Virus record (IMG/VR): IMGVR_UViG_2648501437_000028
DNA length: 15,331 nt
Source: a virus
Lineage: Duplodnaviria; Heunggongvirae; Uroviricota; Caudoviricetes
Reading direction: 5' to 3' (one strand)
Shown here: positions 7,787 to 15,331 of the stretch, piece by piece
How the letters are laid out: each line of letters opens with the position of its first letter
Position numbering within the stretch: position 1 is the first letter of the stretch
Translations under genes and position numbers: made by a program
Notes under the pieces: model-generated
Databases searched by the model: none
Told to the model about the DNA's origin: nothing
Seen by the model: the letters and a program-made list of their open reading frames with translations, nothing else

Positions 7787-8059
7787 TTATCTGTCCTGGT
7801 AATTTCGCCATATTTCATTACCAGCACCATCCATACCCATTTCGGCATAAGTGCGATCGACCGCCTTTTTCAGGTCTCCGTAGTTATCCGGCGGCTCCGG
7901 TGGCCTCTGTGCCTTCCTGGAACATTCCAGCCGTCGCATCGTGATGTGATGCCGTTCCTTGTCTGTCTCCACCAGTTGCATGACTTCACCCCATCGCGCC
8001 GACGCTCTCCGGTAAAAGCCTTTCGCCTCCAGTTCTTCCGCTATGCGGTCATGTACCAT
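7787..8059 (-). CDS. PerC-family transcriptional regulator-like protein
   Basis: About 90 aa from the ATG at 8059 (the track start at 8068 is GTG); AEELEAKGFYRRASARWGEVM resembles the PerC/Pch N-terminal signature; GAGGGGTGGGG Shine-Dalgarno upstream. Confidence 0.6.
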   Translation of the reverse strand: MVHDRIAEELEAKGFYRRASARWGEVMQLVETDKERHHITMRRLECSRKAQRPPEPPDNYGDLKKAVDRTYAEMGMDGAGNEIWRNYQDR

Positions 8060-8071
8060 CGTCCCCACCCC

Positions 8072-8482
8072 TCAGAACGGAATATCATCACCGTAAGGGT
8101 CATCGCCTCCCGCTGGTGGCTGATTACCCTGTGTGCCTGTGGTCTTGCGTCGGCTCCCACCAGGACGTGCCGCACGGGCACTGATTACGCTGTCTGCAAT
8201 AACCTGATAACCCTGCCGCGTTTCCCCGTTCTGTCCGGTCCACTGGCTGACCTGCATCGTGCCGGATACGCTGGCAACGTCGCCTTTTTGATGTTTAGCC
8301 AGGAAGTCGGCCTGCTTACCAAATGCGATGACCGATAGCCATAACGTCGCCTGTCCATCCTGTGCCTGGCTGCATGGCAGCGATACCGCCATACGCGCCA
8401 GCGTCATCGGTGTACCCTTGCTGGTCTGTTTTACCTGCGGGTCGTCCACCAGCCGCCCGTAAGCTGCTATCTGTGCTGTCAT
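8072..8482 (-). CDS. ssb: Single-stranded DNA-binding protein
   Basis: 136 aa; Gly/Pro/Gln-rich tail ending in the acidic DDIPF motif characteristic of SSB; ATGA overlap with the upstream gene. Confidence 0.8.
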   Translation of the reverse strand: MTAQIAAYGRLVDDPQVKQTSKGTPMTLARMAVSLPCSQAQDGQATLWLSVIAFGKQADFLAKHQKGDVASVSGTMQVSQWTGQNGETRQGYQVIADSVISARAARPGGSRRKTTGTQGNQPPAGGDDPYGDDIPF

Positions 8483-8757
8483 GATTCCACCTCTCCGGTT
8501 TTAACGTTGATGGTTGTTACCTGTTCCGCTTCGGCAATCTCCCGCTCTGTCAGCGTGGCAAAATTTGCCGCCGTCGTGGTCATGAATGCGCTTATCAGTT
8601 CGGGATGTGCTTTCGCGTATCCTTCCCCCGCGTGGCGGTCTATCGTTCTGATTGCCACCTTTAAAGCGTGCTCTGTCATGTCTAACGCGCGATATTTCGG
8701 TTCTGTTCTGTCTCTGCGTTTTTTGAGTGATTTATTAAATTTCCCTGAAGTGTGCAT
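8479..8757 (-). CDS. Hypothetical 92-aa protein, first gene downstream of the putative ori
   Basis: ORF track; ATG at 8757 preceded by GAGGGGG; stop overlaps the ssb start. Confidence 0.5.
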   Translation of the reverse strand: MHTSGKFNKSLKKRRDRTEPKYRALDMTEHALKVAIRTIDRHAGEGYAKAHPELISAFMTTTAANFATLTEREIAEAEQVTTINVKTGEVES

Positions 8758-8804
8758 ATTTATTTTTACCCCCTCGTTTAAAAAGTTTTGAGTTGTGCCT
8801 CCCC

Positions 8805-9030
8805 TTGTCTACCTTATCTACCTTAGTGGCCCTCATACCAGTAATGGCGCGGCTTTCAGCGGGGTAGAGTGCTTTTATCCACTATCTACCCCGTGTCTAC
8901 CTCCCTGTCTGATTCAGGTAAAATCAGGTAGAGAGGGTAGATAGTGGGTAGACAGTAAAAAAAGGTTATCTACCTAACTTAATGCACTGAATTAAATGTA
9001 TTTTTCTTTACTCAGGTAGACAGGGTAGAC
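8805..9030. repeat. Iteron array (about 12 copies of GGTAGAC/GTCTACC-type 7-8-mers in both orientations) with flanking AT-rich stretches; putative replication origin
   Basis: GTCTACC 8805, TATCTACC 8813, GGTAGAG 8861, TATCTACC 8881, GTCTACC 8893, CAGGTAGA 8923, GGGTAGAT 8933, GGGTAGACAG 8944, TTATCTACC 8964, CAGGTAGACAGGGTAGACAG 9011-9030; lies immediately 3' of the primase gene. Confidence 0.6.
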
Positions 9031-9045
9031 AGCAATTACAAAAAA

Positions 9046-10800
9046 TTATAAAAACGCGTCGCACTCGTCTGTTGTTATTGCGTTAGTCTGCGTTACTCCC
9101 TTAACTTTCCGCGTAATATATTCATGTCCGTAAACTTTCGCGGCTGGCTTCATAGCCTTGCCAAAGTCATTTACGTTTAGCGGTTTGCTCCTGCCTGCGT
9201 ACGCCATAAACGCCAGATAGACGCGGTAAAGGCTGTTTCTGGTCGTGTACTTCACTGAATCGCCACCGCCGCCCATCATCAGGCCGCGTGCTTCCTCCAG
9301 AAAATTCAGGAACTGGCAAAACTCAATAACCGGATCCGTCTGTTGCTTTATTGCCAGAGCTTCATCACCGTCACGCTGTTCCAGTAGTAAAGCCCGTGCC
9401 TTCTCAGGGTCGGTAAAGTTCGCCAGCAATCGGCGGATAATGACAGGGATTTCAGCCGCGATCTTTTCCGGTAGCTCCCTGTCTTTTTCGGCCTCACTGA
9501 CGATATTGTCGAAACGGAAAATCACGCGACGACGTGCCACACCTCCGGCCCGTTCGGTGAATATCATCGGGTTATTGTTGGTCGCCAGCACCACCGCCCT
9601 GATTACCGCCGTGAAACGCTTTTCGTATTTCGGGTTAATTTCCACGGGGTCACCGCCCGTGATTTTCTTGATGCCCGTTCCTTCGCCTGTATATTTCGGC
9701 TGGTCAGCCAGGACGATAAGACGACTCCCGACAACCTGCGCACGTCCACCAGCATCATCAAGCGATGTCATTTCAGCGCTTACCGTGTTCTGTTTCCCTG
9801 CCAGAAGGCTGGCTATGTGTGTGAATGTACTTTTACCGCTCCCGCCGTCTCCGGTGGCCTCAATAAACATCTGCCAGTCGTACCGGTTCGCCATAATCAT
9901 GTACAGCGCGGCACATATACGCATCATCTTGCGCGGGTCTTTTCCGGCTGCGTGCTCAAGCCATTTATGAAAGTTTGGCGCGTTATCGCGGATGTTCTCC
10001 CCTGGTGCTGGTGGCGTGTACTCAATGCCGTTGTGCGTGGTGATCCAGTTCTCCGGCGTGTGCGGGGAAAATTCCCCCGTTTTCAGGTCAAGCGCACCAT
10101 TGGCGAACGGCAACAAATCGCCGGACGGCTCGCCCATTGGTTCGGCAATAACTTTTAACGCTTCCACGGCGTTATTGATTACGCGCTTGCTGAAAGTGGC
10201 CCTGTGCTCTGAATAGATCGCCACCATTTCGCGGCTAAGTTCCATTGTGCTGACCGGACACCATACCCCGCCGCGCCATACGTGAACGATTTCACTTTCA
10301 GGATGTACGCAAACGCCATCAAAGCGATCGGCAAGCAGCTGCGCGCGCTCACTGTCCGCCATCTGCGAAAGTTGCGCCTTTTGCTTTACCGGAAGCTCAA
10401 TGACCAGACCATCAGAAAGATTCTGGCGCTCACGGGCCAGATATTCGCGCCAGTTCTCCACCTTCTGACCGTGCATACCATCAGGGTAAAAATTTGCATC
10501 CTGTACGCCTGCCGCCGCCAGCTTCTGACCAATCGCCTTTATCATTACTGGCGCAAGATATCCGGCCCTGAATATGCGCACGGATTTTCTGCCTTCCGGC
10601 ACAATTTGCAGCTTATCCAGTTCGGATAACTGCTGCTCCCCAAGCCACACAGGAGGCTCATTATCTCCGGCCATACGCGCGTCATGTTCCTGCCATTGTT
10701 TTGCGTGTGACCAGGCATCACTACCCGCAAAAATAATGACTTCTGTTTCTTTGTGTTTTATGCCGCGTGACTGCTGTTTTACGTTCGGTGCCAGTTTCAT
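9046..10800 (-). CDS. Primase/helicase, P4-alpha-like (TOPRIM-like N-terminus plus SF3/D5-type NTPase)
   Basis: 584 aa; Walker A GDGGSGKST, Walker B-like LIVLADQ; N-terminal acidic primase-like segment; ATGA overlap with the upstream gene. Confidence 0.8.
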   Translation of the reverse strand: MKLAPNVKQQSRGIKHKETEVIIFAGSDAWSHAKQWQEHDARMAGDNEPPVWLGEQQLSELDKLQIVPEGRKSVRIFRAGYLAPVMIKAIGQKLAAAGVQDANFYPDGMHGQKVENWREYLARERQNLSDGLVIELPVKQKAQLSQMADSERAQLLADRFDGVCVHPESEIVHVWRGGVWCPVSTMELSREMVAIYSEHRATFSKRVINNAVEALKVIAEPMGEPSGDLLPFANGALDLKTGEFSPHTPENWITTHNGIEYTPPAPGENIRDNAPNFHKWLEHAAGKDPRKMMRICAALYMIMANRYDWQMFIEATGDGGSGKSTFTHIASLLAGKQNTVSAEMTSLDDAGGRAQVVGSRLIVLADQPKYTGEGTGIKKITGGDPVEINPKYEKRFTAVIRAVVLATNNNPMIFTERAGGVARRRVIFRFDNIVSEAEKDRELPEKIAAEIPVIIRRLLANFTDPEKARALLLEQRDGDEALAIKQQTDPVIEFCQFLNFLEEARGLMMGGGGDSVKYTTRNSLYRVYLAFMAYAGRSKPLNVNDFGKAMKPAAKVYGHEYITRKVKGVTQTNAITTDECDAFL

Positions 10801-11096
10801 TTTTTACCCCTGAATCCGTTAATCATGGTTTTCAGCTTCTGGATGTTTGCCCGTGCCCTGGCGTTGCTGGTGGACACGTTATGCGGCGCGGTCTGTACCA
10901 GAGAAAAATCACGCCGGAACTGATAAACAGGCATCACGCAATCATATTCGTAACCTTCACGGCGGTAGGTTACGCGCCGTTCTTCCACGCCCTTAATCAT
11001 TACCGTGCCGCCGTACTGGTCGCGGTAAATATCGCCGCGCGTAAATTTAGGGTGAGTGTTGCCACTGGCAGTTAAGCCAGAATATTTAAGTTTCAT
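10797..11096 (-). CDS. Hypothetical 99-aa protein, translationally coupled to the primase
   Basis: ORF track; GGAGA Shine-Dalgarno before the ATG at 11096. Confidence 0.5.
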   Translation of the reverse strand: MKLKYSGLTASGNTHPKFTRGDIYRDQYGGTVMIKGVEERRVTYRREGYEYDCVMPVYQFRRDFSLVQTAPHNVSTSNARARANIQKLKTMINGFRGKK

Positions 11097-14113: not shown

Positions 14114-15331
14114 TTATTTTCTTCTGGCTACGGGTAGCGTGGTTACGTTTTCATGTGTTCCCGCCAGTATCCCTAACCGCTCCGTCCACATATCCAGCGC
14201 ATTGCGTTTCGCATCCAGATAACGGGAATGATTATAAACTCGCTGCATTCCTGGCATCTGGTGGCCTGTAAGCTGCTCCACGACATGCGGATCAACGCCT
14301 AAATCGTTCAGCATGGTTGTAAAGGTGCGCCGGATGTCATGCAGTGACCAGTGAGGGTGATTAAGCCTCCTGTGCGCTAATCTTCCATACTGCGATACGC
14401 TGGCCTCCTGTTTCACTTCCCCCAGCAATAAGCCCGTGTGCCTGTTCTGCTCCACCAGCTGCGTGACGAACGGCAGGATCGCTTCCGGTATGGGCCGGAA
14501 TATTGCGACCTTCGTTTTGCTGTGCTCCTTCGGAACGGTCCATAGCATTTCCGTAAAATCCCACTCCCCGATCTCCGATAACCTCAGTTCTACCGTTCTG
14601 GCTCCGAAGACAATCAGGAGGCGGATTAACGCGACGTAGTAAGGGGAGAATATTTTTTTGTCCAGTGCCTGCAATAATTCGCCAAGTTCTTTGTTACTTA
14701 AGACACGTTCGCTTATATCCGGTTTTTTCCCAACGTCCGCAACGTTCAGATCGTCCAGAACGTTGCTGATTGCATAGCGCCGCCTACGGCAGAACTTAAG
14801 CGCCTGTTTGCACGCCTGTAGCACGAATCCGGCAGTAACAGGCGTTCGCTTTGCCACCTGGTCAAAACAGGCCAGCCAGTGCCGTAGCTCGCATTTATCC
14901 AGCGGCATAGCACCAATCTGCTGTATTACGTGATTATTAAGTCGCCTTTTCAGGGCGATATAATCCACGCGGTTTTCCTTTACGTAATACTCAAGCCAGT
15001 AGGTGAGCGCATCGCCAACCGTTACGGGCTTTAACGCTTCCTGTACGGTGTAATTCATCTCATGACGTGGATTTTTCCCCTCAGCCAGCCATGTGCGACA
15101 CTGTGCGGCTTTTTCCCTGGCTGCTTTCAGGCTCAGATCAGGATAACTTCCCAGCTTAATGCGTTCGGGTCGTGTCTCCCTTCCCGTTCCGGCCCTGTAT
15201 GTGAAATACCAGGTCAATTTCCCTGATGTTAAATATTTCACGCTCAGGTTTCCGCCATCACTATAAAACGTGTTTTTCTCCGCTGGCTTACCATGAAGTT
15301 TCCTTAGCAAGGTATCGCTCAGTTTGTTCAT
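14114..15331 (-). CDS. int: Tyrosine integrase (P4-like phage integrase family)
   Basis: 405 aa; C-terminal catalytic signature HDIRRT ... H ... RVYNHSRY (R, H-x-x-R, Tyr nucleophile); ATG is exactly at the window end. Confidence 0.9.
   Translation of the reverse strand: MNKLSDTLLRKLHGKPAEKNTFYSDGGNLSVKYLTSGKLTWYFTYRAGTGRETRPERIKLGSYPDLSLKAAREKAAQCRTWLAEGKNPRHEMNYTVQEALKPVTVGDALTYWLEYYVKENRVDYIALKRRLNNHVIQQIGAMPLDKCELRHWLACFDQVAKRTPVTAGFVLQACKQALKFCRRRRYAISNVLDDLNVADVGKKPDISERVLSNKELGELLQALDKKIFSPYYVALIRLLIVFGARTVELRLSEIGEWDFTEMLWTVPKEHSKTKVAIFRPIPEAILPFVTQLVEQNRHTGLLLGEVKQEASVSQYGRLAHRRLNHPHWSLHDIRRTFTTMLNDLGVDPHVVEQLTGHQMPGMQRVYNHSRYLDAKRNALDMWTERLGILAGTHENVTTLPVARRK

Follow-up and report, generated by a model that had tools for sequence, protein, structure and literature searches.

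A GGTAGA-type iteron array downstream of pri as the probable replication origin of a capsid-forming satellite of Escherichia coli

The viral record IMGVR_UViG_2648501437_000028, whose 15,331 bp are referred to here as the window, contains an array of 8-bp repeats (iterons) at positions 8806-9031, directly after the initiator gene pri. Judged by sequence comparison, this array is very probably the vegetative replication origin of a capsid-forming phage-inducible chromosomal island (PICI) of E. coli. The evidence consists of the array itself and its conservation, the homology of the surrounding gap to an experimentally tested origin, the homology of the initiator Pri to the alpha protein of the satellite P4, and the covariation of the repeat word with the origin-binding domain of the initiator.

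The repeat array

The hexamer GGTAGA occurs 12 times on the two strands of the window, with 11 copies at 8808-9029 and a single one at 14589. Shuffled windows contained 3.7 copies on average and 10 at most, and none of 200 shuffles reached 12. When the whole window was scanned for exact TRTCTACC 8-mers, nine were found, all within 8806-9031; no second 8-mer cluster was present in the window, and one-mismatch matches outside the array were scattered. On the plus strand, copies reading TRTCTACC start at 8806, 8815, 8883, 8894, and 8967, and copies reading GGTAGAnn start at 8863, 8927, 8936, 8947, 9015, and 9024.

The array of 226 bp lies within a 288-bp intergenic gap (9045-8758) and begins 15 bp past the pri stop codon (9046, minus strand). 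Its GC content is 0.39 to 0.45, compared with 0.52 to 0.60 in the flanks. A first-pass annotation of this DNA had described a dense block of about twelve GGTAGAC/GTCTACC-type copies in both orientations, ~230 bp long, with AT-rich spacers and directly 3' of the initiator gene. The position, composition, orientations, and placement were correct, and the count was a fair one, as the 11 exact cores are accompanied by a degenerate copy, TGTCTGAT, in the array centre. The example then given for head-to-head copies, CAGGTAGAGAGGGTAGATAGTGGGTAGACAG, was misread, since its three copies are direct repeats (head-to-tail) at distances of 9 and 11 bp. The array and the gene preceding it comprise the following features.

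9046..10800, minus strand: pri (pri-rep), encoding the 584-aa initiator (Pfam, TIGR01613, identity to P4 alpha)
9064..9339, minus strand: coding region of the origin-binding domain, residues 488-579, the predicted iteron reader (1ka8 match and covariation)
9015..9031, minus strand: proximal direct pair, TGTCTACC twice, 9 bp apart, in pri direction; cores invariant in 11 E. coli variants
8975..9014, no strand: AT-rich spacer of 40 bp, ~78% AT, putative first-melting site
8967..8974, plus strand: single inverted 8-mer TATCTACC
8927..8954, minus strand: three direct 8-mers TGTCTACC, TATCTACC, and TCTCTACC, spaced 11 and 9 bp
8902..8926, no strand: central spacer and approximate dyad centre (inverted repeats I1-I4), holding degenerate TGTCTGAT at 8905-8912
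8883..8901, plus strand: 8-mer pair TATCTACC, TGTCTACC, 11 bp apart, inverted relative to pri
8863..8870, minus strand: single 8-mer with intact core, GGTAGAGT on the plus strand
8838..8859, no strand: non-iteron 22-mer TCAGTAATGGCGCGGCTTTCAG in the distal GC-rich gap, near-invariant in 11 E. coli variants
8806..8822, plus strand: distal 8-mer pair TGTCTACC, TATCTACC, 9 bp apart, inverted relative to pri

Counted from the pri stop codon, two direct copies (9 bp) are followed by one inverted copy at a start-to-start distance of 48 bp over the AT-rich gap, and then, after a start-to-start distance of 20 bp, by three direct copies (11 and 9 bp), two inverted copies, one direct copy, a gap of ~46 bp, and two inverted copies. 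This gives the orientation string >><>>><<><<. The 40-mer at 8966-9005 (78% AT) is the fourth least stable one in the window, ~3 standard deviations under the mean, and the place of the AT-rich spacer corresponds to that of the AT-rich gap in P4 ori and in the Ant element described below.

Homology to the tested origin of EcCICFT073

The gap is 94% identical to positions 1383942-1384309 of CFT073, a stretch flanked by a primase-family gene of 584 aa and a gene of 85 aa, and all 11 cores are found at the same positions. In the gene list of the island EcCICFT073, pri (c1495) has 584 aa and c1496 has 85 aa (Fillol-Salom et al. 2018 supplement, PMC6092414). The region 3' of the initiator was reported to carry two iteron sets flanking an AT-rich region (PMC6092414, Fig. 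2a). In replication tests in DH5alpha, a plasmid with pri and ori of EcCICFT073 gave colonies at the restrictive temperature, the plasmid without pri gave none, and the plasmid without ori gave significantly fewer (PMC6092414, Fig. 2b). We mapped the published primers and found that the pri-ori insert extends to the start of c1496 and the pri-Δori insert to the stop codon of pri. What was deleted as "ori" therefore corresponds to window positions 8737-9041.

These results show that the origin family has already been described and tested, in 2018 (PMC6092414). The proposal of a satellite origin beside the initiator is supported by the 94% identity, and the replication check on the cloned region, which had been suggested along with it, has in effect been done on the EcCICFT073 copy, with pri-dependent replication as the outcome. 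The window shares the traits of Gram-negative PICI origins: the site lies directly 3' of pri/rep, the pair at 9015-9031 is separated by the 40-bp gap (78% AT) from the copies at 8967-8974 and 8927-8954, and the sequence is homologous to the tested ori.

The initiator and its origin-binding domain

Pfam matches of Pri comprise D5_N, DUF5906 (the superfamily 3 [SF3]-type helicase core), and, at the C terminus, the winged helix Pox_D5, and the protein also matches TIGR01613, the P4-family primase C-terminal domain. Residues 141-579 are 40% identical to residues 324-762 of P4 alpha, and residues 488-579 match 1ka8, the crystallized origin-binding domain of P4 alpha, with an E value of 7e-8. Residues 1-135 have a TOPRIM-like fold; Pfam gave no match within the first 160 residues, and neither the Zn-ribbon nor the Toprim primase domain of P4 alpha was found in Pri by this search. 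The earlier designation as a P4-alpha-like primase/helicase thus holds for the helicase and origin-binding parts but not, by Pfam, for the primase domains of alpha.

One genome per species was scanned, which yielded 80 loci (L014-L093), and ~55 of these entered the covariation comparison. As the repeat class of a locus we took the dominant 6-mer within 420 bp downstream of the initiator gene, and the loci were distributed as follows.

Repeat word GGTAGA: 17 loci
Repeat word GGTGAACA: 14 loci
Repeat word GATGTATAG: 12 loci
Repeat word ATGAACAC: 3 loci
Repeat word AACTGTCCG: 3 loci
Repeat word CAGTGAC: 2 loci
Other repeat words: singletons

When helicase identity was matched, loci sharing a word had much more similar origin-binding domains. 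In the 60 to 70% helicase bin, for example, the domain identity was 59% for the same word and 37% for different words. The regression term was +0.17, and 0 of 2,000 label permutations exceeded 0.04, a result that is supportive only and is not a true probability, because the locus pairs are phylogenetically non-independent. Two pairs were the clearest examples: L015 and L018 have helicases that are 84% identical, binding domains that are 31% identical, and different words, and L078 and L080 have helicases that are 45% identical, binding domains that are 66% identical, and the same word. The comparison of ~55 loci from many genera thus supports the view that the repeat word tracks the origin-binding domain and not the helicase.

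The exact >><>>><<><< string was found in nine sequences including the window, from Escherichia, Shigella, Raoultella, Klebsiella, Citrobacter, and Symbiopectobacterium. Many iteron words fit the template TGTNNACC, among them TGTTCACC of P4, TGTCTACC of the window, and TGTATACC of locus L017. Full-length alpha-like proteins of ~800 aa in Xenorhabdus (L022, L031) also have GGTAGA arrays directly downstream of their genes.

Conservation among E. coli variants

Eleven E. coli variants of the gap, 70 to 100% identical, were aligned. Core columns were 93% conserved, with 53 of 66 invariant, compared with 70% and 33 of 160 for the other array columns (Mann-Whitney p = 6e-14). In the more divergent variants the third copy of the direct triplet (8927-8954) is replaced by an extra inverted copy, and variants L004 and L005 have a better 8-mer copy at the central-spacer site of TGTCTGAT. 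Across the aligned variants, 8-mer copies thus turn over while the word is retained.

Some further motifs were noted around the iterons. The 22-mer TCAGTAATGGCGCGGCTTTCAG is absent from Ant and P4, whose corresponding gap is AT-rich, and neither a hairpin nor a promoter nor an Rfam match was found in its region (8838-8859). Between iterons, at 8875-8883, a near-consensus DnaA box (TTATCCACT) is present, which also occurs in CFT073; it was dropped as a candidate element because it is not kept in the more divergent variants. The sequence GTTTAAAAAGTTTT at 8777-8790, just 5' of the ribosome-binding site of the 92-aa gene that follows the gap, was invariant in 11 of 11 variants. No sigma-70-like promoter was detected on the gene strand and no terminator after pri, an Rfam scan of the whole window gave no match, and both gaps, when folded as single strands, gave nothing above shuffled controls. 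A DNA search of a phage collection with the gap as query did not give a match either.

Proposed function and alternative explanations

We propose that after induction the 584-aa Pri, an SF3-type helicase, would bind the TRTCTACC 8-mers via its C-terminal winged-helix origin-binding domain. The 8-mers are arranged in pairs and a triplet with about one helical turn (9 to 11 bp) between copies, and the predicted layout for binding is two direct copies, the 40-bp AT-rich gap, one inverted and three direct copies, and then an inverted half-copy of this order (two, one, gap, two). Cooperative binding on either side of the AT-rich gap might melt this gap and load the helicase. Host enzymes, probably including DnaG for priming, would then copy the excised circle together with the single-strand DNA-binding protein (SSB) of the satellite.

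Several points weigh against an origin at this site. The replication experiments come from the EcCICFT073 homologue and not from the window element itself, and deletion of ori in that homologue cut colony numbers, abolition not being reported. Pri is without recognizable primase motifs that would account for the priming step. Locus L030 of Escherichia ruysiae has GGTAGAC-type repeats but an origin-binding domain of a type found with other words, and the phylogenetic non-independence noted above limits the weight of the permutation result. Finally, the block may have a second, regulatory role, since it also precedes the next operon.

The latter point leads to the alternative that the repeats are mainly operators by which a regulator or Pri controls the downstream operon (the 92-aa gene, ssb, perC, and capsid), and that replication does not start here. 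The location of the block within the 288 bp that precede the next gene, the invariant GTTTAAAAAGTTTT near the ribosome-binding site of that gene, and the failure to find a terminator after pri would be compatible with such a function. An operator-only role is nevertheless quite unlikely, because no promoter of the sigma-70 type was found on the gene strand, deletion of the homologous gap impairs plasmid replication, and the array stays with pri beside quite different downstream modules. The covariation of the repeat word with the origin-binding domain of the initiator also argues against it.

The block might also be the counterpart of P4 crr, a cis-acting helper, with the true start elsewhere in the element, as in P4 it is the crr array that follows alpha directly, with ori ~4.7 kb away. 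The distal half of the window array in fact resembles a crr unit, with one direct copy, a gap of ~43 to 46 bp, and two inverted copies. We consider this explanation even less probable than an operator function, because the window has no second 8-mer cluster. Moreover, the proximal half reproduces the full layout of P4 ori including the AT-rich gap, and pri plus the homologous gap of EcCICFT073 alone support replication.

Although the satellite encodes HNH, TerS, and TerL and repeat arrays can be TerS binding sites, a packaging site (cos or pac) for its terminase is highly improbable, because islands with unrelated packaging modules share the array, which travels with pri; in addition, the block is ~6 kb from terS, and ori and cos of EcCICFT073 were handled as separate features (Fillol-Salom 2019).

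Two other candidates were rejected. Integrase arm sites were discarded because ~5 kb separate the repeats from int, in whose vicinity a single core is found. For a RepA-type iteron plasmid origin, 17- to 22-bp direct repeats, a non-helicase Rep, and conserved DnaA boxes were looked for, but the window has 8-mers in both orientations and a helicase initiator, and its single near-consensus DnaA box is not conserved in homologues. An origin read by Pri hence remains the explanation that we favor.

The element and its gene neighborhood

All genes around the array are on the minus strand. Those beyond the gap are listed here.

8479..8757, minus strand: first gene beyond the origin, 92 aa, phrog_1231, counterpart of c1496
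8072..8482, minus strand: ssb, satellite-encoded single-strand DNA-binding protein (Pfam SSB)
8068..7787, minus strand: perC

On the other side, a DUF4222 gene at 10797-11096 overlaps the start codon of pri and was conserved in every E. coli locus that was inspected. It sits where P4 has ORF106, the copy-number gene cnr, immediately ahead of alpha.

According to Pfam and PHROG, the window carries int, alpA, an Icd-like gene, the DUF4222 gene, pri, ssb, and perC as well as head and packaging genes, namely, an HK97-type capsid, a prohead protease, a portal, head-tail connectors, HNH, TerS, and TerL. Tail and lysis genes were not found in the ~15-kb element with these databases. Over the stretch around the gap that served as query, the window is 100% identical to a ~15.7-kb island by which tqsA is interrupted in E. 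coli FORC_069 and further strains, and the tqsA island of FORC_069 has no tail genes. Such a gene set is that of a capsid-forming PICI (bioRxiv 10.1101/2022.09.08.507074). The gene content identifies the element as an E. coli PICI of the capsid-forming kind rather than a P4-type satellite.

Homologues of the gap are present in 565 of 5,426 complete E. coli genomes (~10%) and are always chromosomal. In other islands the same array accompanies pri beside quite different downstream modules and unrelated packaging genes. The main value of the present analysis is the correct annotation of the gap as the origin of a satellite family that occurs in ~10% of complete E. coli genomes. The additions to the 2018 description are modest: the covariation of domain and iteron, the nearly base-for-base match to the layout of P4 ori, and the absence of a recognizable primase domain from Pri. 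As the 8-mer word varies jointly with the last ~100 residues of the initiator, origin/initiator compatibility of co-resident satellites could be predictable from sequence.

Comparison with known replication origins

The closest relative is the origin of EcCICFT073, representative of Gram-negative PICIs, which shares with the window the 94% identity, the location 3' of a 584-aa pri, and the iteron sets around an AT-rich region. In contrast to EcCICFT073, the window element has its own HK97-type head and terminase genes and is inserted in tqsA. The pri-dependent replication is a feature of the CFT073 copy and is predicted by homology for the copy in the window.

The origins of the Staphylococcus aureus pathogenicity islands (SaPIs) SaPIbov1 and SaPI1 are likewise located directly 3' of the initiator, with two iteron sets around an AT-rich region (PMC6092414). 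Their initiator is also an SF3-type helicase, and the structure 7ola matches Pri residues 194-432. However, the SaPI origins are without sequence similarity to that of the window and use other iteron words, and the Gram-positive initiator 7ola is much longer (797 aa), so that the helicase core alone aligns.

A further relative is Ant ("Escherichia phage vB_KppS-Ant," LR881103), a 16.5-kb genome of an induced particle. Its Pri is 41% identical to that of the window, and the identical 11-iteron layout >><>>><<><< directly follows pri and is itself followed by a capsid gene; it differs in using the 8-mer of P4, TGTTCACC, and in that both gaps are AT-rich. The Ant array is located at 4284-4513 of L012, and LR881103, a phage according to its deposition, has the look of a capsid-forming satellite. 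When the literature was searched for TGTTCACC, only unrelated primer lists came up, and a search linking P4 iterons with PICIs gave no further paper beyond the works cited here.

In the case of P4, the helicase and origin-binding parts of the initiators are homologous (40% identity), and Pri has both the alpha-type helicase and the winged-helix origin-binding domain; P4 alpha carries in addition a Zn ribbon and a Toprim domain, both of which are lacking in Pri by Pfam. Both systems use 8-mer iterons in both orientations, in the order of two copies, an AT-rich gap, one inverted copy, and three copies. The spacings of P4 ori in alpha direction (10-43-22-11-10) and those of the proximal module of the window (9-48-20-11-9) agree within 5 bp. 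The 8-mers TGTTCACC of P4 and TGTCTACC of the window differ at positions 4 and 5 only, and they are not shared: the P4 type I iteron TGTTCACC has 0 copies in the window, and GGTAGA has 0 copies in P4. In P4 the iterons are split between ori and the duplicated crr, ~4.7 kb apart, with crr and not ori directly downstream of alpha (NC_001609), which corrects the first-pass annotation, where the P4 origin was placed beside the initiator gene. The window, on the other hand, has a single cluster in one 226-bp block, whose distal half ends as the P4 crr unit does. We therefore regard the array as probably a compact homologue of the P4 replicon, in which a single block of 226 bp unites a module of the P4 ori type with a crr-like one. 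The 8-mers would largely follow the TGTNNACC template, and changes in them, often in the middle bases, would switch specificity together with a swappable origin-binding domain. The comparison across loci thus joins the PICI and P4 replicons more closely than is stated in the literature.
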